A stretch of DNA of 64,000 nucleotides from Centroscyllium fabricii (taxonomy: Eukaryota), in NCBI GenBank assembly GCA_051313645.2, contig JBNRSN020000002.1, positions 519,684,001-519,748,000 on the forward strand, written 5' to 3'. The translations under genes and the position numbers were made by a program. This document shows, piece by piece, positions 13,863 to 53,923 of the stretch. Position 1 is the first letter of the stretch; each line of letters opens with the position of its first letter. The notes beneath the pieces were generated by a model that was given only the letters and a program-made list of their open reading frames with translations, was not told where the DNA came from and did no database searches.

Positions 13863-13980
13863 ACTGTCTCTGTCGCCAACTCTTTTAAAACCCTAGGATG
13901 TAGGCCATCGTGTTCAGGGGATTTGTCAGCTTTTAGTCCCATTAATTTTTCCAGTACAGGGTATTATTTCTTTGCAAATA

Positions 13981-14510
13981 CAGGTTGAGCACCGTTAATC
14001 CGTGTCCCTAATAGCCGGCAGCTTCAGTCTGCCGGCACAAATTGCCCCGACTGCACTGCGCATGCGCAAAATGGCAGCCCCCATCGTGGCTTCAGCGAAT
14101 GATCTGCGCATGCGCCGAGCGCATGCGCAGATCATTCAAAACAGCTGCGGGTGTTTTGAATGATCTGCGCATGCGTCACCGGACGGTTAGCGCATGCGCA
14201 GATAATTCAATACGGCCGCCCGTTATTTTCTCGACAGCTGAGCCCCGTGACTGAGGCGGACAGTCACTAGGCAACAGCTGTCAGCCTGAGTCCGGCTCGG
14301 CGGCAGCAGCAACCCGAAAGGCGATGGAGAGGGAACGCGGACCCGTGCCCGATCTGCGCATGCGCGCGCCAGCCAATCGCAATGCTGCGCGCATGCGCGT
14401 GGCCATTTTGAATGGCGCGCATGCGCAGTGTCCAAACTCGTTCTCCCGGTTTTTTCCATTTCCCGGCACGGGCCTGGTCCCGCCCGTGGCGGATTAACGG
14501 TGCTCAACCG
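13981..14510. mobile_element. Tigger/pogo-type MITE, ~530 bp, rich in GCGCATGCGC
   Basis: TIR caggttgagcaccgttaatcc...ggattaacggtgctcaacc(t)g, TA flanks. Near-identical to 32224 and 53356 but in opposite orientation. Confidence 0.92.
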
Positions 14511-14716
14511 TACTAATATCTTTAAGTTCCTTATTCTCACGAGACCTTTGGTTCCCCATTATTTCCGGAATTATTTTGTGTCTTCTGTGAAGACAGATAC
14601 AAAGTATTTGTTTAATGTCACTGCCATTTCCATATTCCCCATTATAATTTCCTCTGTCTCTGCCTATAGGGGACCCATGTTTACTTTCACTAATTGCTTC
14701 CTTTTTACATACCTAT

Positions 14717-28249: not shown

Positions 28250-28449
28250 NNNNNNNNNNNNNNNNNNNNNNNNNNNNNNNNNNNNNNNNNNNNNNNNNNN
28301 NNNNNNNNNNNNNNNNNNNNNNNNNNNNNNNNNNNNNNNNNNNNNNNNNNNNNNNNNNNNNNNNNNNNNNNNNNNNNNNNNNNNNNNNNNNNNNNNNNNN
28401 NNNNNNNNNNNNNNNNNNNNNNNNNNNNNNNNNNNNNNNNNNNNNNNNN
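28250..28449. other. Assembly gap (200 N)
   Basis: Run of N. Confidence 1.
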
Positions 28450-32223: not shown

Positions 32224-32940
32224 CAGGTTGAGCACCGTTAATCGGGCACGGGCGGGACCAGGCCCGTGCCGGGAAATGGAAAAAACCGGGAGAACGAGTT
32301 TGGACACTGCGCATGCGCGCCAGGCAAAATGGCCACGCGCATGCGCGCAGCATTGCGATTGGCTGGCGCGCGCATGCGCAGATCGGGCCCGGGTCCGCCG
32401 TCCCTCTCCATCGCCTTTGGACAAATGCAAAAAGTCACACAACACCAGGTTTAAAGTCCAACGTTTTATTTTAAATCACAAGCTTTCGGAGCTCCGAAAG
32501 CTTGTGATTTAAAATAAAACGTTGGACTTTAAACCTGGTGTTGTGTGACTTTTTGCATTTGTCCACCCCAGTCCAACACCGGCACCTCCGCATTATCGCC
32601 TTTGGGGTTGCTGCTGCCGCCGAGCGGGACTCAGGCTGACAGCTGTTGCCTAGTGACTGTCCGCCTCAGTCACGGGGCTCAGCTGTCGAGAAAATAACGG
32701 GCGGCCGTATTGAATTATCTGCGCATGCGCTAACCGTCCGGTGACGCATGCGCAGATCATTCAAAAACACCCGCAGCTGTTTTGAATGATCTGCGCATGC
32801 GCTCGGCGCATGCGCATATCATTCGTTGAAGCCACGATGGGGGCTGCCATTTTGCGCATGCGCAGTGCAGTCGGGGCAATTTGTGCCGGCAGACTGAAGC
32901 TGCCGGCTATTCGGGACACGGATTAACGGTGCTCAACCTG
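32224..32940. mobile_element. Tigger/pogo-type MITE containing a Penelope-like insertion
   Basis: TIRs caggttgagcaccgttaatc / gattaacggtgctcaacctg, TA flanks. Confidence 0.92.
32421..32594. mobile_element. Penelope-like fold-back insertion (perfect 148-bp palindrome 32418-32565)
   Basis: TSD atcgcctttgg (32410-32420 and 32595-32605). The sister MITE at 53356 shows the empty site. Confidence 0.85.
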
Positions 32941-33812
32941 TAGTAGGTTCGTTGTTAGGATCAGATCAGCCATGATCTTGTTGAATGGCGGAGCAGGTTC
33001 GAGGGGCCGATTGGCCTACTCCTGCTCCTATTTCTTATGTTCTTATGATTCGGCACCCTCGCAACCCCGGCACGGTTCACTGCCCGCGCAACCCCGGCAC
33101 AGTTCACCGCCCGCGCAACCCTGGCACGGTTCACCGCCCGCGCAACCCCGGCACGGTTCACCGCCCACGCAACCCCAGCACGGTTCACCGCCCACACAAC
33201 CCCAGCACGGTTCACCGCCCGCACAACCCCGACACGGTTCACCACCCGCGCAACCTCGGCACGGTTCACCACCCGCACAACCTCGGCACGGTTCACCGCC
33301 AGGGCAACCCCAGCACGGTTCACCGCCCACACAACCCCGGCACGGTTCACCGCCCACACATCCTCGGCACGGTTCACCGCCCGCGCAACCCAAGCACAGT
33401 TCACCGCCCGCACATCCTCGGCACGGTTCACCGCCAGCGCAACCCCGGCACGGTTCACTGCCTTCCAGAGAGGAAAGGAAGGAATAAATGTAGGTAACTG
33501 GCCGCAGCCGTCAGTTATGGGACAGGAGCAATTCTAACACCACTGACTCCAGCTGCTGCTCGCTCAGTTCCTTCAGGAACTTTCATTTCCAACCTTCTCA
33601 CAGCTTACTGACCTTTTCACTCTCCGTTAAGACTCCAGCAGGAAGCTCATGCTGTAGAGAGCAGCAAGCAACCAAGACTGAATCTTCAACCCAACCAACA
33701 TTTTGTTTTTTGTTACCCTCGCCTCAAACCGCCTGCAATTTTATTTTATCCAACAAAAGAAGCGACATTGGATAACGCAAACGCTGCGTCAAGCAGCCTG
33801 TCTCGGTGTCGG

Positions 33813-37588: not shown

Positions 37589-38532
37589 TGTCTGTGGAAC
37601 TGTACCCCAGTGAGAGTCAGTGCCTGTGGAACTGTACCCCAGTGAGAGTCAGTGTCTGTGGAACTGTACCCCAGTGAGAGTCAGTGTCTGTGGAACTGTA
37701 CCCCAGTGAGAGTCAGTGTCTGTGGAACTGTACCCCAGTGAGAGTCAGTGTCTGTGGAAATGTACCCCAGGGAGAGTCAGCGTCTGTGGAACTGTACCCC
37801 AGTGAGAGTCAGCGTCTGTGGAACTGTACCCCAGTGAGAGGCAGCGTCTGTGGAACTGTACCCCAGTGAGAGTCAGTGTCTGCGGAACTGTACCCCAGGG
37901 AGAGTCAGTGTCTGCGGAACTGTACCCCAGGGAGAGTCAGTGTCTGTGGAACCCGTACCCCAATGAGAGTCAGTGTCTGTGTAACTGTACCCCAGTGAGA
38001 GTCAGTGTCTGTGGAACTGTACCCCAGTGAGAGTCAGTGTCTGTGGAACTGTACCCCAGTGAGAGTCAGTGTCTGTGGAACTGTACCCCAGTGAGAGTCA
38101 GTGTCTGTGGAACCTGTACCCCAGTGAGAGTCAGTGTGTGTGGAACTGTACCCCAGTGAGAGTCAGTGTGTGTGGAACTGTACCCCAGTGAGAGTCAGTG
38201 TCTGTGGAACTGTACCCCAGTCAGAGTCAGTGTCTGTGGAACTGTACCACAGTGAGAGTCAGTGTCTGTGGAACTGTACCCCAGTGAGAGTCAGTGTCTG
38301 TGGAACTGTACCCCAGTGAGAGTCAGTGTCTGTGGAACTGTACCCCAGTGAGAGTCAGTGTCTGTGGAACTGTACCCCAGTGAGAGACAGTGTCTGTGGA
38401 ACTGTACCCCAGTGAGAGTCAGTGTCTGTGGAACTGTACCCCAGTGAGAGTCAGTGTCTGTGGAACTGTACCCCAGTGAGAGTCAGTGTCTGTGGAACTG
38501 CACCCCAGTGAGAGACAGTGTCTGTGGAACTG
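37589..38532. repeat. 32-bp minisatellite (tgtctgtggaactgtaccccagtgagagtcag)
   Basis: About 29 units visible. Confidence 0.95.
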
Positions 38533-40164
38533 TCCTCACGAGTGTGTAGGAGGGTGAAACTGACCATCGTGTTGTGCAGAAGTTTTGCTCCTTTTGGCCT
38601 TTCAGAGTTAAGTGCTGCGCATTGATCCAGGGCAAAAAGCAAACCACGACACCCACAAGACTCTGCCCTCTGCGTATGTTGCATGCATGGCAAGAGCGGA
38701 GAATCCAGCCGCTGTGACAAGATAACCAATGAAAGCGTTCGAGATAATCCTCGGAAATCCCTCCCAGCCCCAAAGCCCACAAGCAGCATGCAAGAGCCAA
38801 ACGGTCTCCCCTCAGCCAGCATGTCCAAGCATCAACATTCCGGGCCCTTCGCTCTTAAAATGTGTTGGCTCCCAGAGCTTCCTATCCAACAGCTTGATCT
38901 TTTTACATACACTAGCTGATCTTTTGTAACACTGCTCACGCACAAGAAAAAGTCAAATTTATAAATTAATAAATTCAAACAAAAATTGCGTCATTAATTT
39001 GAGTGAACTTATTGATTTATGAAATGTATTCAAAATATGGATTTGTGTTAGCTTAATGAATATTATTAACTGCAGTGAGAACTTTCAATTAAGTGTAGTC
39101 AGTTGTTTCATTTTTCCATCTAAAAATATCAGAGCTATCTTCTGTAACTGTAGGAGATCGAGTTTCCATTTGGCTGCCATTAAGGACTAGCGATTTTGAA
39201 AATTGTAATCTGCTTCAAGTATAATCATCCTATTTCTCGAGCAAAGAAAAAAACCAATCAATATTCAGAAGCCATTGCAGTAATCAATATGGAGGTGGGT
39301 TTTGCAAGTTGCCGCTCACAATAAAGAGCCTTGGTTGTTGGGAGAGCAGCCCCAATGGTCAGGAGTGAAGATTTGAGACCCGCCCAAATTTCTGGCCATT
39401 AATGTTGAGGTTTGGGAATCTGGAAGGCCAAGAATCAGGTGAGGCTTCACTCTGGAAGCTCCAACTTATAAAATTTACCCTGCAATCCCTTCCCGTTAAT
39501 TAAGGTGCAATGATATTGTAGCGACACTGATCAAAAATGAATCCAGTCAGTTCAGATTACTGCTCAAAGCAGAGCCTCAGCCCCACCGAGCTAATCCATC
39601 TCATTCGGTCGGACGCTGCCTCCGGTCACCTGCCTAAACTTTCTGCGTGTAATCAATGGATCGAAGATGGCGGACAGCACACTGCTGGTTTTCTGGTAGG
39701 TGGTGACAGCAGGCGAGAGTCCTTGCCAGGGGCACCTACTCCAGAGAATCACCCGCAGTGCGCGTCCTGGTGCAGAAGCTGCTGTCCGGTTGAGAGGCAT
39801 GGAAACCATCCGGACCCAGGCTCAACCAAACAATCCCAGCTCGCGCAACGGAGCTAAAGGCAAATTCTAGGCTACACAGAGGACAGAGCAATGCAGGCAA
39901 AGGTTGCGTTAAGTGTTCGAAGATGTGTTTATTGGCAAGTTTTGTAATCTTTTCAGAATTTGATATTTCTTTATGTATTAATGTCATTTTAAGAGTTGGG
40001 TGAAATATAAAAAATGGCCACCGAAAGAAGTTGGCAAAAACATTTCCAGGTATTTGATTGGTTGTCTTTTTGATTGCTGTCAGCCATTCACTGGTGGCTC
40101 TTTAAACCAATGACAATTTGTATAAAAGTGATATCGTAAAGTATGATTGGCTGAATATCTGTCC

Positions 40165-41757: not shown

Positions 41758-41872
41758 CGTTTTCTCGTGAGCAAGCAGTGATGACTTCCCAGGCTCATAA
41801 TCGAAAATGCTTCTTGGCTCCGCACGATACCTCTGCATATCCACTTTCTTGTCGAGAGGCCCCCAGTCGTTC
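41758..41872 (-). CDS. SORBS1: SORBS1 internal exon, 115 bp, phase 2-0: (R)[38 protein letters not shown]
   Basis: Acceptor cccccttctctcccAG and donor ACG|GTACTG. Matches the conserved SORBS block NDWxPxDKKVDxxxYRAEPxSIxxYxPGKSS. Lies within ORF 41599..41898. Confidence 0.92.
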
Positions 41873-42502
41873 CTGGGAGAGAAGGGGGGAAAAATCAACT
41901 GTGAATTCTTATGGCATCCATGGAAACGGAGAACTTCCTTGGGCCTCGGTCAGACACTCCAGTAAACCCCTTTTAAATCAGCACACCCTTTGAACTCTGG
42001 CAGGCCGAGTGCTCCACTGCCACTTCCTTGGCCACAGGAAAACATTTCTTTGCAGCAAGAACATTTCTGAGAGACCGGTCGTTGTAAAATTGACACAACG
42101 TCAAGAGAATAAAAACCACGCTATTTTAAGCTGGATAAGTATTTGCGGATTGTACCAAGGGTATGTAAACACTGATCAACAGAGCCGATTTTCTGACGGG
42201 GAAACCAACTGAAATCACACACTGTGCAGAGATGATTCTTCAAATTAGGGCTTCGCGTTACATAGAATTTACAGCCACTCGAAAACAGGCTGCTCGGCCC
42301 AACTGCCTTGGGACGTTTTACTATGTTAAAGGCGCTCGATAAATGCAAGTTGTTGTTGTTGTTGCTCTACGATTTTCTTATAGCATTATTTCATTATAAA
42401 ACCGTCAGTGGGTCACACACCACTCAAAATATAACTTAAAAAGTGTGAGTTAAGGAAAACTAAATCTGGTTATACAACCAAGTAGACCGTGGATTTACAG
42501 AA

Positions 42503-42938
42503 AAAGACTTGCATTTATATAGCACCTTTCACAACCTCAGGACATCCCAAAGTGCTTTACAGACAATGAAGCACTTTTTGAAGTGTTGTCACTGTTGTAA
42601 TGTGGGAAACGCGGCAGCCAGTTTGCGCACAGCAAGCTCCCACAAACAGCAATGTGATAATGACCAGATCATCTGTTTTTAGTGATGTTGATTGAGGGAT
42701 AATTATTGGCCCCAGGACACCAGCGAGAACTCCCCTACCCTTCGAAATAGTACCATGAGATCTTTGACGCTCACCTGAGAGCAGACGGGGCCTCGGTTTA
42801 ACGTCTCATCCAAAAGACTGCAGCACTCCCTCAGCACTGCGCCGGAGTGTCAGCCTAGATTCTGTGCTCAGGTCCATGGAGTGGGACGTGAACCCACAAC
42901 CTTCTGACTCGGAGGCGAGGGTACGATCCACTGGGCTA
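42503..42938 (-). mobile_element. SacSINE1/DeuSINE-like SINE
   Basis: Reverse-complement homolog of 33813-34283. Confidence 0.78.
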
Positions 42939-42977
42939 GGGAGAATCGTGTAAGGAAAGAAAGCGACAATTCCACCT

Positions 42978-44851
42978 GAGCGGGAGATTCTGTGAGCAAA
43001 CAGGGCGGGAGCTTGTGTGAGCAAACAGGGCGGGAGCTTGTGTGAGCAAACAGGGCGGGAGCTTGTGTGAGCAAACAGGGCGGGAGCTTGTGTGAGCAAA
43101 CAGGGCGGGAGCTTGTGTGATCAAACAGGGCGGGAGCTTGTGTGAGCAAACAGGGCGGGAGCTTGTGTGAGCAAACAGGGCGGGAGCTTGTGTGAGCAAA
43201 CAGGGCGGGAGCTTGTGTGAGCAAACAGGGCGGGAGCTTGTGTGAGCAAACAGGGCGGGAGCTTGTGTGAGCAAACAGGGCGGGAGCTTGTGTGAGCAAA
43301 CAGGGCGGGAGCTTGTGTGAGCAAACAGGGCGGGAGCTTGTGTGAGCAAACAGGGCGGGAGCTTGTGTGAGCAAACAGGGCGGGAGCTTGTGTGAGCAAA
43401 CAGGGCGGGAGCTTGTGTGAGCAAACAGGGCGGGAGCTTGTGTGAGCAAACAGGGCGGGAGCTTGTGTGAGCAAACAGGGCGGGAGCTTGTGTGAGCAAA
43501 CAGGGCGGGAGCTTGTGTGAGCAAACAGGGCGGGAGCTTGTGTGAGCAAACAGGGCGGGAGCTTGTGTGAGCAAACAGGGCGGGAGCTTGTGTGAGCAAA
43601 CAGGGCGGGAGCTTGTGTGAGCAAACAGGGCGGGAGCTTGTGTGAGCAAACAGGGCGGGAGCTTGTGTGAGCAAACAGGGCGGGAGCTTGTGTGAGCAAA
43701 CAGGGCGGGAGCTTGTGTGAGCAAACAGGGCGGGAGCTTGTGTGAGCAAACAGGGCGGGAGCTTGTGTGAGCAAACAGGGCGGGAGCTTGTGTGAGCAAA
43801 CAGGGCGGGAGCTTGTGTGAGCAAACAGGGCGGGAGCTTGTGTGAGCAAACAGGGCGGGAGCTTGTGTGAGCAAACAGGGCGGGAGCTTGTGTGAGCAAA
43901 CAGGGCGGGAGCTTGTGTGAGCAAACAGGGCGGGAGCTTGTGTGAGCAAACAGGGCGGGAGCTTGTGTGAGCAAACAGGGCGGGAGCTTGTGTGAGCAAA
44001 CAGGGCGGGAGCTTGTGTGAGCAAACAGGGCGGGAGCTTGTGTGAGCAAACAGGGCGGGAGCTTGTGTGAGCAAACAGGGCGGGAGCTTGTGTGAGCAAA
44101 CAGGGCGGGAGCTTGTGTGAGCAAACAGGGCGGGAGCTTGTGTGAGCAAACAGGGCGGGAGCTTGTGTGAGCAAACAGGGCGGGAGCTTCTGTGAGCAAA
44201 CAGGGCGGGAGCTTCTGTGAGCAAACAGGGCGGGAGCTTCTGTGAGCAAACAGGGCGGGAGCTTCTGTGAGCAAACAGGGCGGGAGCTTCTGTGAGCAAA
44301 CAGGGCGGGAGCTTCTGTGAGCAAACAGGGCGGGAGCTTCTGTGAGCAAACAGGGCGGGAGCTTCTGTGAGCAAACAGGGCGGGAGCTTCTGTGAGCAAA
44401 CAGGGCGGGAGATTCTGTGAGCAAACAGGGCGGGAGATTCTGTGAGCAAACAGGGCAGGAGATTCTGTGAGCAAACAGGGCGGGAGATTCTGTGAGCAAA
44501 CAGGGCGGGAGATTCTGTGAGCAAACAGGGCGGGAGATTCTGTGAGCAAACAGGGCGGGAGATTCTGTGAGCAAACAGGGCGGGAGATTCTGTGAGCAAA
44601 CAGGGCGGGAGATTCTGTGAGCAAACAGGGCGGGAGATTCTGTGAGTAAACAGGGCGGGAGATTCTGTGAGTAAACAGGGCGGGAGATTCTGTGAGTAAA
44701 CAGGGCGGGAGATTCTGTGAGTAAACAGGGCGGGAGATTGTGAGAGTAAACAGAGCGGGAGATTGTGAGAGTAAACAGAGCGGGAGATTGTGAGAGTAAA
44801 CAAAGCGGGAGATTGTGAGAGTAAACAGAGCGGGAGATTGTGAGAGTAAAC
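42978..44851. repeat. 25-bp tandem array (cagggcgggagcttgtgtgagcaaa), ~75 units, at the CR1 5' end
   Basis: Directly visible; variants are ordered in blocks. Confidence 0.97.
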
Positions 44852-47842
44852 AAGAGAGCGTGACAGTGGGAGATCGGGCCGGAGATAGAAAGAGCGTCAC
44901 TGAGCCGACCAGCGGGGCTACAAGACAGCGAGCCCGGAGCAGCCCTGACCGAGCTGGGAGGGCAAGAATCAGAAAGCTTCAAAGTGTGACATCACAGGAA
45001 AGCAGGGAAGCCATTGGTTGGTCAGTATTTCACTCTTTTTCGTGGGCATTGGTTTAAATTAAGAGCCGGGTTAAGAACTAAATGTTCAAAACTTAAACAC
45101 TTAATTAAATACATTAGAGATGGCAGGGCAGGCGATGTGTTACTGCTGCAATGTGTGGGAGCTGGAGGACACCATTGAGGTCCACGGCAACCACATTTGC
45201 ATTAAGTGTTGGTTGCTCGAGGAACTTTGGTCCCGTGTTGATGAGCTGGAGTCCGAGCTTCATACACCGAGACACGTCAGGGAGGGGGAGAGTTACCTGG
45301 ACGCTGTGTTCCAGGAGGCAGTCACACCCCTTAGATTAATTAATTCAAATTTGGTCCGTAGTCAGGGACAGGTGGGTGTGACTACGAGCGAGGCAGGTAT
45401 GGGGACCCCGGAGGTAGCGGTGGAGGAGCCTCAGCCCTTGCTCTTGTCCAACAGGTACGAGGTTCTTACTCCCTGTGCGGGCGAGGGCAGTGACTGCAGG
45501 GAGGATGAGCAATCTGACCACGGCACCGTGGTACAGGGAGCCATTCAAGTGGGGGGAGCCAAAAGAAATGCGGTAGTCGTAGGAGACAGTATAGTTAGAG
45601 GGATAGATACTGTTCTCTGCAGCCAAGAGCATGAGCCCCGAAGGCTGTGTTGCCTGCTGGTGCCAGGGTGAAGGACATCTCCTCTGGGCTGGCGAGGAAC
45701 CTGGAGTGGGAGGGGAAAGATCCAATTGTCGTGGTCCATGTAAGTACCAACGACATAGGTAGCAGGAGTGTCAGCAGCTGGGGGCTAAATTAAAAGCAGA
45801 ACCACAAAGATAACATTCTCTGGATTACTACCTGAGCCACGTGCAAATTGGCATAAGGTAAATAAGATCAGAGAGATGACTGAGTGGCTCAAATACTGGT
45901 GTGGGAGAAATGGGTTTCGATTCTTGGGGCACTGTCACCAATACTGGGTTAAGAGGGAGCTGTTCTGTTGGGACGGGCTTCATTTCAACCAGGCTGGGAC
46001 CAGTGTCCTGGCGAATCGAATAACTAGGGCTATCGATAGGGTTTTAAACTAAATAGTGAGGGGGAGGGATCCACTGAGCAGAAATTTAAAAAGTCAAAGG
46101 AAAATGAGAAGGCAAATGTGCAGGGTAGCGATAGGGGTAATGGTAACCAGAGTGTGACAGGTAGGGATATACACATAAGAATGCATCAGAAAGAGGTGTC
46201 AGAGTAGGGAAAAATAGCAAAAAGACAAAATTAAAAGCTCTATATCTGAATGCACACAGCATTCGTAACAAGATAGATAAGTTGACAGCACAAATAGAAA
46301 TAAATGGGTATGATCTGATAGCCATTACAGAGATGTACATGGTGACCAAGTCTGGGAACTGAATATTCAGTGGTATTTGACATTTTGTAAGGATAGGCAG
46401 AAAGGAAAAGGAGGTGGGGTAGCTCTGTTAATAAGGGATGAGATCATTGCAGTAGGGAGAAATGATATTGGCTTCGAAGATCAAGACACAGAATCAGTTT
46501 GGGTGGAGTTAAGAAATAATAAGGGTAAGAAGTCACTGGTGGGAGTGCTCTCCAAGCCCTCAAACAGTAGCCACACTGGAGGACAGAGAATAAATCAAGA
46601 AATAATAGAGGCTTGTAAGAAAGGTATGGCTATAATCATGGGAGATTCTAATCTTCATATTGATTGGACAAAGCAAATTGGCAAAGGTAGACTTGAGGAA
46701 GAGTTCTTAGAATGTATACAGGATGGTTTCTTGGAACAATATGTTGTGGAACCAACCAGGGAGAAGACTATTTTAGATCTGGTAATTTGTAATGAGGCTG
46801 GATTAATGAATGATCTCGAAGTGAAGGATCCTCTTGGGAAGAGTGATCATAGCATGGTAGAATTTCAAATTCAGTTTGAGGGGGAGAAAGCTCGGTCTCA
46901 AACTAGTGTCCTGAACTTAAATAAAGGTAATTACAAAGGTATGAAGGCAGACTTGTTTAAAGTGGACTGGGAAAATATATTACAGGGCAAGACTGTACAA
47001 AAGCAGTGGCAAACATTTAAGGAGATATTTCATAACTCTCAGCAAAGATATATTCCAGTGAGAAAGAAAGACTCTAAGAGAAGGATGAACCATCCATGGC
47101 TAACTAAGGAAGTAAAGGATGGTGTCAAATTGAAAACAAAAGCTTACAATGTTGCGAAGAATAGTGGAAGGCCAGAGGATTGGAACATTTTTAAAAACCA
47201 GCAAAGGACGACTAAAAAAGAAATGATAGAGAGAAGATAGCGTATGAGAGTAAGCTAGCAAGAAATATAAAAACAGACAGTAAGAGCTTCTACATGTATA
47301 TAAAAAGGAAGAGAGTAGCTGAAGTAAACATTGGTCCCCTAGAGGATGAGTCTGGGGAATGAGTAATGGGAAACAGGGAAATGGCGGAGACTTTGAACAA
47401 ATACTTTGTACAGTCTTCACGGTAGAAGACACTAAAAGCCTCCCAATAATGTTTAATCAAGGGGCTATTGGGAGCGGGGGGGAGGGAAATTTAAAACAAT
47501 CACTATTAGGGAAGAAGTTCTAAGCAAACTATTGGGACTAAAGGTGGACAAGTCCCCTGGACCAGATGGCCTGCATCCTAGGGTCTTAAGAGGTGGCTGC
47601 AGAGATAGTGGATGCATTGGTTGTAATCTATCAAAATTCCCTGCATTCTGGAGAGGACCCAGCAGACTGGAAAACCGCAAATGTAATGCCCCTATTTAAG
47701 AAAGGAGGGGGACAGAAAGCAGGAAACTATAGACTAGTTAGCTTAACATCTGTCATTGGGAAAATGCTGGAGTCCATTATTAAGGAAGTGGTAACAGGAC
47801 ATTTAGAAAATCAGAATATAATCAAACAGAGTCAGCATGGTA

Positions 47843-48576
47843 CCGGTTGAAGTTCATTAATCTGGCAGAGTCAGGACCAGCACCCTGCCGGGTTGTTGAA
47901 AACAGCGAATTATTGAAGTCACGGCAGCGCATGCGCAGAACATTCAAAATGGCCGCCGCAAAATTTTCAATGCTCTGCACATGCGCTCGCCGGTACCTGC
48001 CAGTTGATTTTCGGCCCAAGGGTCTGGTGGAACTCGCACTTGATTCTGCTGCAGGTCAGGGAGTGGGCTGCACGGCTCCAGCGGGCCTGAGGCCCAATGC
48101 GCGGCTCAAGCCTGGCTCACGTGACGCCACCGCACGTCAGCTTCGGAACGCGGTGACGTCAGCACGCAGCCATCGATTCTGCTGCGGGTCAGGGAGCGGG
48201 CTGCACGGCTCCAGCGGGCCTGAGGCCCAATGCGCGGCTCAAGTGACGCCACCGCACGCCAGCTTCGGAACGCGGTGATGTCCGCACGCAGCCAGGCAGG
48301 AGCCTCCGGCAGCGATGGGCACCAATAATTGCCTGTATCGTGTCCTGCGAAAGGCAGCTGGCACAACAGCTCGTCTTCTGGGCTTGTGATTCACCATCGG
48401 CATCGGGGTGGTCACTAAGCCGGGATCCAGTGAGTATATGTTAGGTGAAAGAGAAGCCCAGCCCCGACGGTGGCCATTTTGAATTGTCTGCGCATACGCC
48501 GGGCAGTCGGGAAAATCTGTGCCGAACGACTGAAGCTGCTGGTTTTTCGGGTGCCGGATTAATGAACTTCAACCTG
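47843..48576. mobile_element. Tigger/pogo-type MITE, divergent subfamily with an internal ~140-bp duplication
   Basis: TIRs c(c)ggttgaagttcattaatc / gattaatgaacttcaacctg, TA flanks, splits the CR1 RT at QHG|FMKG. Confidence 0.88.
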
Positions 48577-48877
48577 TATTATGAAAGGGAAATCATGTTT
48601 GACAAATTTACTGGAGTTTGAGGGTGTAAACAGCAGGGTGGATAAAGGGGAACCAGTAGATGTGGTGTATTTGGATTTCCAGAAGGCATTCGATAAGGTG
48701 CCACATAAAAGGTTACTGCACAAGATAAGAGCTCATGGGGTTGGGGGTAATATATTAGCATGGATAGAGGATTGACTAATCAACAGAAATAATGTGGAGG
48801 TGCCGGTGTTGAACTGGGGTGGACAAATGCAAGAAGTTACACAACACCAGATCATAGTCCAACAGTTTTATTTTAAA

Positions 48878-48915
48878 TCACAAGCTTTCGGAGCTTCTGC
48901 CCCTTCGTCAGATGA
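48878..48915 (-). ncRNA. Minimal type I hammerhead ribozyme motif, mirror copy on the SORBS1 sense strand
   Basis: Exact reverse complement of 48923-48960. Confidence 0.72.
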
Positions 48916-48922
48916 ACTTCTT

Positions 48923-48960
48923 TCATCTGACGAAGGGGCAGAAGCTCCGAAAGCTTGTGA
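48923..48960 (+). ncRNA. Minimal type I hammerhead ribozyme motif
   Basis: UCAU-CUGACGA-A-GGGGC-AGAA-GCUCC-GAAA-GC-UU-GUGA, intact core. Confidence 0.72.
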
Positions 48961-50064
48961 TTTAAAATAAAACTGTTGGACTATGATCTGGTGTTGTGTG
49001 ACTTCTTGTAATTAACAGAAAACAGAGAGTTGGGATAAATGGGTCATTTTCAGGTTGGCAAACTAACTAGTGGGGTGCCGCAGGGATCAGTGCTGGGGCC
49101 TCAACTATTTACAATCTATATTAATGACTTGGATGAAGGGACCGAGTGTACTGTAGTCAAATTTGCTGATGATACAAAGATAGGTGGGAAAGCAAATTGT
49201 GTGGAGGATGCAAAGAATCTCCAAAGGGATATAGATAGGCTAAATGAGTGGGCAAAAATCTGGCAGATGGAGAATAATGTGGGAAAATATGAGGTTATCC
49301 ACTTTGGTGGGAAAAATAAAAAAAGCAAATTATTGTTTAAATGGGGAGAGATTACAAAATGCTGAGATACAGAGGGATCTGGGGGTCCTTGTGAATCACA
49401 AAAAGTTAGCATGCAGGTACAGCAAGTGATTAGAAAGACAAATGGAAGGGAATTAAGTATAAAAGTAGGGAAGTCTTGTTATAACTGTACAGTGAGACCA
49501 CACCTGGAGTACTGCAAGCAGTTTTGGTCTCCTTATTTAAGGAAGGATATTCTTGCATTGAAGGCAGTTCAGAGAAGGTTCACGAGGTTGATTCCTGGAG
49601 AAGAAAGGGTTGTCTTATGAAGAAAGGTTGAGCAGGTTGGGCCTATACTCATTGGAGTTTAGAAGAATGAGAGGGGATCTTATTGAAACATATAAGATTC
49701 TGAGGGGGTTGACAGGGTAGATGCAGAGAGGATGTTTCCCCTCGTGGGGGAATCTAGAACTAGGGGGCATAGTCTCAGAATAAGGGGAAACCCATAAAAC
49801 CGGAAATGAGGAGGAATTTCTTCTCGGAGGGTTGTGAATCTTGGGAATTCTCTTCCCCGGAGAGCTGTGGAGGCTGGGTCATTGAATATATTTATGGTGG
49901 AGACAGACAGATTTTTGAATGGTAAGGGAGTCGAGGGTTATGGGGAGTGAGCAGAGAAGTGGAGTTGAGGCCAAGATCAGATATGATCTTATTGAATGGC
50001 GGAGCAGGTTCGAGGGGCCGACTGACCCACTCCTGCTCCTACATCTTATGTTCTTATGTTCTAC

Positions 50065-50194
50065 CTTTCAGAAAGTGGTTTGAGTGACGACGACCGGGTT
50101 GGTAGAGGTAGCGTGGCTGATCTCCTCTCGATGACCTCCGAGTCAATGGTGTCCATTGCACTTTTGGAACGAGGCACAATAGTCTGACTTTTCA
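50065..50194 (-). CDS. SORBS1: SORBS1 internal exon, 130 bp, phase 1-2: KSQTIVPRSKSAMDTIDSEVIERRSATLPLPTRSSSLKPLSE(R)
   Basis: Acceptor tttttgcAG and donor AG|GTAGAA. The VPRSKS...RSATLPLPxRSSSLK motif is characteristic of SORBS1. Confidence 0.9.
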
Positions 50195-51139
50195 CTGCAA
50201 AAAGTAGATCAAACTGGTTAGGGAAACATCAATGGCAGCGATACCCCTCTCCCCACCCTCTGGGGGCACGGCTGCTCAAGCCAGCGAGTAGCTGAGTTAG
50301 ACAGACCAAGATCTCAAGTTGCATCGCTGTCTGAATTGAGTTAGCTGATCGCCATTGGGCCGGCACTAGGGACATTATTATGGTCTCAGTGCAACTGGGT
50401 TAGAAAAAGAAAATTGTCCAAATTGCCAGCTCTTAATCACGAAGCAGTGACTCCTGCGGAAAGTGGGAATGCTGGGTGAGCACAGGCTGGCACTAGCCTG
50501 TTGTGCCCTCCACCACTGAGCTGCCTGTTTACTGTCTAGGCTCGTGGATGTAGAAAAGCCACTTAGGCTCGATTCTCCATGTGTGATGAGACTGTATTCC
50601 CACTTCAAGATAATCAGTTAGAGTCAGATGATTAACTCTGGACAATCGCTGTAAATAAGGAGGCCTCCCTTTGGCAGAGAGAGAGAGAGGAGTTCTGTAA
50701 TTGAGCCAAATAAAACAGTTCGTTTATTCTAATGAATAAACCTGTTTAAAAGCCAGGGGAAAGCGGAGGCCTGGTCTGATGATACCATGGAAATCGAGCC
50801 ACAGCAAGGAGTCAACGCCTTATGGAAACAAGGAAAGGAAGACAACAGGCCAGTGGAAAACAGGAGGGGGAAACAAAGGCATGGCCGAGTTCCCGATTGT
50901 AACAGACCAAAGACAGATTGTAGCTCCGTACTGGAGCTCCGCTCGGTGCTGTCCAACTCAGCAGATCAACCAGTACAAAACATGACAGGTAACATGCCCA
51001 GATTTTCAGGAGTTGCCCGTGTGCTGTCCCCTTTTAAATCAAGGTGGGGATACAGGTTTGCAAAGAAAGTTTGAGTCATGGCCTGCATCACTAATTTCTT
51101 CAAGCTTTGTTTCCCAATTTGCTCCCCTATTCTGAAAAC

Positions 51140-52292
51140 ACCGACTCTCGCTGGGGTTCGGGTCCACGGATCCTCACCGACTCTCAATGGGGTTCGGGTC
51201 CACGGATCCTCACTGACTCTCACTGGGGTTCGGTTCCATTGATCCTCACCGACTCTCACTGGGGTTCGGTTCCATTGATCCTCACCGACGCTCACTGGGG
51301 TTCGGTTCCATTGATCCTCACCGACTCTCACTGGGGTTCGGGTCCACGGATCCTCACCGACTCTCACTGGGGTTCGGGTCCACGGATCCTCACCGACTCT
51401 CACTGGGGTTCGGGTCCACAGATCCTCACCGACTCTCACTTGGTTCGGGTCCATGGATCCTCACTGACTCTCACTGGGGTTCGGGTCCATTGATCCTCAC
51501 CGACTCTCACTGGGGTTCGGTTCCATTGATCCTCACCGACTCTCACTGGGGTTCGGGTCCACGGATCCTCACCGACTCTCACTGGGGTTCGGGTCCACGG
51601 ATCCTCACCGACTCTCACTGGGGTTCGGGTCCATGGATCCTCACTGACTCTCACTGGGGTTCGGGTCCATTGATCCTCACCGTCTCTCACTAGGGTTTGG
51701 TTCCAGGGATCCTCACCGACTCTCACTGGGGTTCGGTTCCATTGATCCTTACCGACTCTCACTGGGGTTCGGGTCCACGGATCCTCACTGACTCTCATTG
51801 GGGTTCAGTTCCATGGATCCTCACCGACTCTCGTTGAGGTTTGGGTCCACGGATCTTCACCGATACCCTCACTGGGGTTCGGTTCCAGGGATCCTCACTG
51901 ACTCTCACTGGGGTTCGGGTCCACGGATCCTCACCGACTCTCACTGGGGTTCGGGCCCACGGATCCTCACCGACTCTCACTGGGATTCAGTTCCATTGAT
52001 CCTCACTGACTCTCACTGGGGTTCGGGTCCATTGATCCTCACCGACTCTCACTGGGGTTCAGTTCCATTGATCCTCACCGACTCTCACTGGGGTTTGGGT
52101 CCATGGATCCCCACTGACTCTCGTTGGGGTTCAGTTCCATGAATCCTCACCGACTCTCTTTGAGGTTCGGGTCCACGGATCTTCACCGATACCCTCACTG
52201 GGGTTCGGTTCCAGGGATCCTCACCGACTCTCACTGGGGTTCGGGTCCACGGATCCTCACCGACTCTCACTGGGGTTCGGGCCCACGGATCC
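51140..52292. repeat. 36-bp minisatellite (ccgactctcactggggttcgggtccacggatcctca)
   Basis: About 32 units visible. Confidence 0.95.
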
Positions 52293-53037: not shown

Positions 53038-53355
53038 ACAGCATCACATAGACCCTATTTTAAGTTTAAAATATCAAATGAATTTATTTTAACAAGCTCA
53101 TAACCAACAGTAACATAGATTTATATTTACAGTAGGCATTCTTCTACCAAATTCCTCTAGTGGACAAATATTTTTTTTTTTTTAAATTTCAACTCTGAGA
53201 ACAAAATCAACTCTTTCTAAATAACTTTTAAATAAGAGTGTTTCTTTTCCTACATTTTTTTACCACTGTGAAAACCTAATCAATCTAAATTGCTGCTTGG
53301 AAATTCACTTATTTGTTCCTTTTCTGAGATTTTTATTTTTTTTATTTTTTTAATA

Positions 53356-53883
53356 CAGGTTGTGCACCATTAATCCGCCACGGGCGGGACCAGGCCCGTG
53401 CCGGGAAATGGAAAAAACCGGGAGAACGAGTTTGGACACTGCGCATGCGCACCAGTCAAAATGGCCACGCGCATGCGCGCATTGCGATTGGCTAGCGCGC
53501 ACATGCGCAGATCGGGCCCGGTTCCGCCGTCCCTCTCCATCGCCTTTGGGGTTGCTGCTGCCGCCGAGCGGGACTCAGGCTGACAGCTGTTGCCTAGTGA
53601 CTGTCCGCCTCAGTCACGGGGCTCAGCTGTCGAGAAAATAACCGGCGGCCGTATTGAATTATCTGCGCATGCGCTAACCGTCCGGTGACGCATGCGCAGA
53701 TCATTCAAAACACCCGCAGCTGTTTTGAATGATCTGCGCATGCGCTCGGCGCATGCGCAGATCATTCGCTGAAGCCACGATGGCGGCTGCCATTTTGCGC
53801 ATGCGCAGTGCAGTCGGGGCAATTTGTGCCGGCAGACTGAAGCTGCCGGCTATTCGGGACACGGATTTTCGGTGCACAACCTG
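53356..53883. mobile_element. Tigger/pogo-type MITE
   Basis: TIRs caggttgtgcacc / ggtgcacaacctg, TA flanks, near-identical to 32224 without its insertion. Confidence 0.92.
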
Positions 53884-53923
53884 TATAAACAAAATTGGTC
53901 ATTTACATCCCAGGAGAGAGTGA

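Follow-up and report, generated by a model that had tools for sequence, protein, structure and literature searches.

Positions at zero distance from an exon are normally purged of insertions, and a full-length LINE that is probably fixed at such a place, beside an exon that is probably constitutive, raises the question of how the splice donor outlived the insertion. The case considered here lies in a stretch of 64,000 nucleotides of Centroscyllium fabricii DNA (the window), where a CR1-type element stands at the donor of a SORBS1 exon (Table 1). The initial annotation of this DNA proposed that the insertion had duplicated the AG/GT of the donor (the slash marks the exon–intron boundary) and that the LINE tail had rebuilt the site from +3 onward. 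The first part of this proposal, including the retention of a donor, is upheld below, and the second is judged the less likely reading, since CR1 tails usually overlap their target and the ancestral donor that it implies is atypical. The survival of the splice donor is most likely due to duplication of the signal and not to bases supplied by the tail.

The 130-nt exon and the exon downstream of it are assigned to SORBS1 by protein matches, and the former is most similar, at 86–93% identity, to proteins of sharks and rays that carry the name SORBS1. Of 120 proteins retrieved from sharks and rays, 114 join the two exons directly; the other six were without the search motif and left out of the junction count. 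The 130-nt exon is probably constitutive, because its skipping shifts the frame, and the splice from 50065 to 41872 is predicted for this species. Weak GT sites are also present at 50030 and 50026. A search of the assembly for a second copy or an empty allele of the exon gave one match only. The exon is covered in none of seven sequencing runs of other organisms, which is uninformative on expression or an empty allele, and a metagenome scan for it gave one locus, in unrelated GC-rich DNA. The rest of SORBS1 is located elsewhere on the same scaffold. Its 3′ half is found about 3 Mb off on the opposite strand (G000:C711:522.69-522.76 Mb), past a 200-N gap (window 28250-28449), and is most likely a misoriented scaffold piece. 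The introns flanking the two exons hold tandem arrays of 32-bp and 36-bp units, which are related (about 72% alike) and lie on opposite strands (window 37589-38533 and 51139-52292).

Table 1. Features of the SORBS1 exon pair and of the LINE between them (window coordinates; a dot marks features without a strand)
Feature	Position	Strand	Remarks
Decayed full-length CR1-type LINE	42978..50062	+	7,085 bp; 5.4% from family consensus
5′ array; 25-bp 5′ monomer of the family, locally expanded to 75 units	42978..44852	+	
Broken ORF1, Cys/His-rich at its start, with a weak match to GDSL esterase	45119..46052	+	E 0.0037, below curated cut-off
Broken ORF2 with pieces of endonuclease and reverse transcriptase	46314..49620	+	
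Nested element, terminal inverted repeats, TA flanks	47843..48576	.	
Nested hairpin element, 92-nt arms, 8-bp duplication	48790..49013	.	
CR1 3′ tail, 8-bp units (CTTATGTT)	50046..50062	+	preceded by predicted stem-loop ~49996-50044
SORBS1 coding exon	50065..50194	-	130 nt; skipping shifts the frame
Downstream SORBS1 exon	41758..41872	-	115 nt
Remaining intron (inferred pre-insertion intron and any later insertions)	41873..42975	-	1,103 nt
Present donor AG/GTAGAA, exon-side duplicate	50059..50066	-	core ACCT 50063-50066; 50059-50062 tail or target
Orphan donor copy AG/GTGGAA; CAG/GTGGAA with the last base of the LINE	42970..42977	-	

The LINE is antisense to SORBS1, and its description in the initial annotation as a CR1 of about 7 kb is supported by protein matches and by comparison within its family. 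Pieces of the broken ORF2 match an AP endonuclease (PF14529, E 5.7e-7) and a reverse transcriptase (PF00078, E 4.6e-11), and an 8-bp microsatellite tail follows a predicted 3′ hairpin, as is characteristic of the CR1 clade; the fold of this stem-loop is not significant (z -1.39). Another feature of the clade is an ORF1 with a zinc finger and an esterase. The N-terminal piece of the present ORF1 gives no profile hit, and its esterase match is weak. The tail is the (CTTATGTT)n repeat of the family, found in 74 copies. A 3′ hairpin with an 8-bp microsatellite is described for CR1 elements (PMC5729268, partial text), and the present copy resembles these in its stem-loop and 8-bp tail units, in its endonuclease and reverse transcriptase and in the weak esterase match, and differs in its 75-unit 5′ array and its tail unit, which is ATTCTRTG in amniotes. 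The divergence of the copy was measured against a 17-copy consensus to which it contributed; the remaining 16 copies stand at 4.8–7.1%. Given its divergence, the insertion is probably old and fixed.

The 25-bp monomer of the 5′ array is present at 5 of 29 other 5′ loci of the family, and the array was rejected as a separate minisatellite because the monomer belongs to the 5′ end of the LINE family. The first unit, starting at 42978, retains the GAGCGGG form of other family copies. Though the LINE is 5% diverged, the units are 99% identical and arranged in variant blocks, with the outermost unit being the older form; a minisatellite-like expansion postdating the insertion is suggested. Different 5′ monomer arrays precede the same body in related CR1 copies (L020, L024, L028 and L030). 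Several CR1 copies (L034, L041 and other loci) are interrupted or cut near consensus position ~1313, two of them by about 770 bases, possibly by a site-preferring element. The TA-flanked inverted-repeat family nested in the LINE (47843-48576) has related pieces at window 13978-14516, 32595-32942 and 53350-53886.

The position of the insertion can be stated precisely, as both edges of the LINE are set by other family copies, independently of the flanking bases. On the forward strand the tail ends with GTTCT at 50062, the exon edge is at 50065, and ACCT, which is AG/GT on the gene strand, flanks the element at 42974-42977 and 50063-50066. These positions had been given in the initial annotation and are exact to the base. 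The two donors that it named can likewise be read directly: the gene strand has GAAAG/GTAGAA at the exon, and removal of the LINE in silico leaves GAAAG/GTGGAATTGTCG, i.e., AG/GTGGAA. The flank match extends to eight bases with one mismatch (TTCCACCT and TTCTACCT), an extension absent from the initial annotation. A direct repeat in exact register is thus found at independently defined ends, as expected of a target-site duplication made by target-primed reverse transcription (TPRT), and the duplication is accepted as real because both ends are fixed through the family comparison. The caution that a 4-bp match can occur by chance is justified for loose registers, where it occurs in 12.7% of mismatched pairs versus 13 of 59 family copies. 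Since such matches are common, the exact register is decisive; there, the same four flank bases are obtained in 0.4% of random draws, and seven of eight in 0.016%. The 5′-truncated copies were tried as a gauge of duplication length and rejected, as they show only that small excess over chance and their ends are uncertain.

Because of this uncertainty, CR1-tail insertions nested in other repeats of this genome were used as controls, the target sequence being thereby known. A total of 325 tails in 1.83 Mb yielded 56 nested candidates, of which 22 were dropped (10 with duplicated hosts and 12 unclear) and 34 kept, most of the latter being CR1-mobilised SINEs or members of another subfamily. The overlap between tail and target is 0 bases in 3 insertions, 1 in 6, 2 in 14, 3 in 7, 4 in 2 and 5 in 2, which amounts to at least one base in 31/34, at least two in 25/34 and at least four in 4/34 (shuffled, 18% and 3%, with a null that is biased low). 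At the target, outcomes range from small deletions to duplications of 12 bases; no duplication or a small deletion is seen in 8/34, a duplication of exactly 4 bases in 5/34 and one of at least 8 in 2/34, one of these two being partly explained by 5′ overlap. Imperfect likeness beyond the overlap is enriched, with the first base past the mismatch matching the tail in 19/34 cases versus 28% expected (p 0.0005). A 3′ overlap of 1–5 bases and short duplications are known for CR1, L2 and RTE LINEs (PMC6007223, partial text, citing Ichiyanagi and Okada 2008) and are reproduced in the 34 nested insertions. The present case differs in that the target overlapped by the tail is part of a splice donor, and this makes the source of donor positions +3 to +6 ambiguous.

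The properties of SORBS1 donors help to narrow this ambiguity. Apart from the donor under study, 28 were inferred from protein matches, not from RNA (23 picked by eye from 70 rows and five read separately). Those without G at +5 have A at +3 in 11 of 12 cases, and those with neither A at +4 nor G at +5 have it in seven of seven. GTGGAA, with A at neither +3 nor +4, is unmatched among the 28. In donor pairing, a key pair is secured when A occupies +3 or +4 (PMC8283771, in excerpt). Donors of the AG//GU type depend more on the exon end than on +3 to +5 (PMC9803359, in excerpt), so even a 4-bp copy would preserve the main determinants. A search of the open-access literature gave no paper on the +3 dependence of donors. 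Scoring of both donors by the energy of the U1 duplex gives -6.5 kcal/mol for GTAGAA and -6.1 for GTGGAA, a small predicted difference. These energies are crude, being calculated from the familiar U1 motif with pseudouridines treated as U. The present donor is thus predicted to be similar in strength to GTGGAA, as the initial annotation held in calling it similar or slightly better, and an improvement by the tail is not the best reading of the gain.

We consider it probable that the ancestral donor was already AG/GTAGAA and that a duplication of 8 bp copied it in its entirety, with the orphan copy later decaying to GTGGAA. The target strand would have been nicked beside TTCT, and the 3′ tail of the LINE RNA would have paired with these four target bases and primed reverse transcription. 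A staggered cut of 8 bp would then have carried AG/GTAGAA (-2 to +6) to both ends of the LINE and enlarged the intron from about 1.1 to 8.2 kb. Selection would have retained the exon-side copy, and a single A-to-G change on the gene strand would have turned the far copy into GTGGAA, from an ancestral empty site reading GAAAG/GTAGAATTG. At the present intron start, a LINE origin is certain only from +7 on; TTCT, with which the tail ends, could just as well belong to the target, given that overlap is the rule in the nested insertions. The match of seven in eight flank bases supports the copied donor, and T>C substitutions at 2.2% of T sites indicate that enough time has passed since the insertion for a single change in the orphan. 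Against it stand the rarity of duplications of at least 8 bp, compared with those of exactly 4 bp, the need for a specific later mutation, and the enriched tail likeness past the first mismatch, which favours a donor built by the tail.

In that alternative, to which we give a clearly lower but still appreciable probability, the old donor was AG/GTGGAA, only 4 bp were duplicated, and the tail supplied AGAA at +3 to +6, yielding a slightly better donor by the U1 duplex energies. It needs no later mutation, its duplication length is within the common range, and the mismatch of tail U with target G is wobble-compatible, and imperfect upstream likeness is enriched in the controls; wobble-type first mismatches as such are not enriched among these (11/34 versus 35%). 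It requires zero overlap, found in three controls, none of which has a 4-bp duplication, and three further upstream matches, found in 1/34. It also requires the ancestral GTGGAA, devoid of A at +3 and +4 (cf. PMC8283771, in excerpt) and of any counterpart in the other SORBS1 donors. Zero overlap with three chance matches and an 8-bp duplication with one T>C change have about equal odds, and it is SORBS1 donor usage that tips this near balance in favour of an ancestral GTAGAA. A rough calculation, some terms of which are guessed, gives GTAGAA a central value of 0.75 (mean 0.66, 10–90% range 0.34–0.92), while the tail-built donor receives 0.14 and a point mutation after the insertion 0.11. The last of these would start from the same empty site as the tail-built donor, GAAAG/GTGGAATTG, with an 8-bp duplication of GTGGAA followed by a gain of A at +3 in the working copy, possibly under selection. 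This course is unlikely, as the ancestral donor would have to be atypical, the duplication long and the priming mismatched, even though no change is more frequent in the LINE copy than C>T (at 5.5% of C sites, with CpG counted) and the course has rough odds of 0.11–0.13. Still less credence is due to a chance origin of the far ACCT, with a left flank that is not the original intron start (through target deletion or later rearrangement), or to an assembly error. Insertions without duplication or with a small deletion do occur among the controls, but the exact register on both sides and the identity of seven in eight bases speak against chance. A contig from run X1, which may be the source sample, is identical to 50034-50740 and speaks against misassembly at the exon-side junction, with just 29 letters on the LINE side, short of a 31-letter rule.

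The copied donor also leaves a juxtaposed acceptor and donor (YAG/GT) at the far junction, where the gene strand reads CTCAC-AG, a short pyrimidine run and then CAG/GTGGAA. This geometry follows by construction from the duplicated AGGT. The LINE could accordingly be a removable unit, spliced out between the exon donor and the CAG at 42976-42978, with AG/GTGGAA restored for a second splicing step; this is compatible with any other reading, and we regard it as quite improbable. As an intron within an intron, the element would draw its putative branch point, pyrimidine tract and CAG from the antisense 5′ monomer, and its removal would regenerate the old donor, a prospect that seems slim. Another CAG lies at 42990, from which a 14-nt exon could start. 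The site resembles the ratchet points and recursive sites of PMC8605326 and bioRxiv 2024.12.11.627982 (both in excerpt) in its intronic juxtaposed YAG/GT, and the regenerated donor has a U1 duplex energy of -7.6. It differs from them in its weak donor and its short intron of just 8.2 kb; AG/GTGGA is absent from the ten motifs by which recursive sites are recognised in the excerpt of bioRxiv 2024.12.11.627982. Moreover, the geometry is inevitable from any AGGT duplication, as in the intron-gain model in which a transposon inserts into AGGT with target duplication (PMC3443670, partial text). The two cases share a duplicated AGGT that gives GT at one end and AG at the other, with the coding sequence intact. 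Unlike in the model, it is a LINE that inserted, it struck an existing donor and so created no intron within the coding sequence, and use of the far AG is putative.

The locus thus represents a real, clean and tolerated LINE insertion at a donor, mostly an ordinary insertion scar, and all its ingredients are already known. A search of the open-access literature gave no published example of a donor duplicated by a LINE, or of a recursive site born from a retrotransposon, which is weak evidence given the narrow terms. A short duplication and tail–target pairing can render such an insertion nearly neutral. Splicing at the far site would mean that a recursive splice site can arise from a retrotransposon in one step, and that giant repeat-rich genomes have a general route to tolerate insertions at donors; as the evidence stands, the locus is an illustration and not a new system. 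Two observations concern splice-like sequence within the LINE itself. On the gene strand, 19 monomers of the array (window 42978-44852) read TTTGCTCACAG and are acceptor-like, and the 47 units adjoining the outermost one are without that CAG. The antisense CR1 tail, (ATAAGAAC)n (window 50046-50062), is donor-like; with one more base at its end, the tail would create AG/GTAAGA, with a U1 duplex energy of -9.5.
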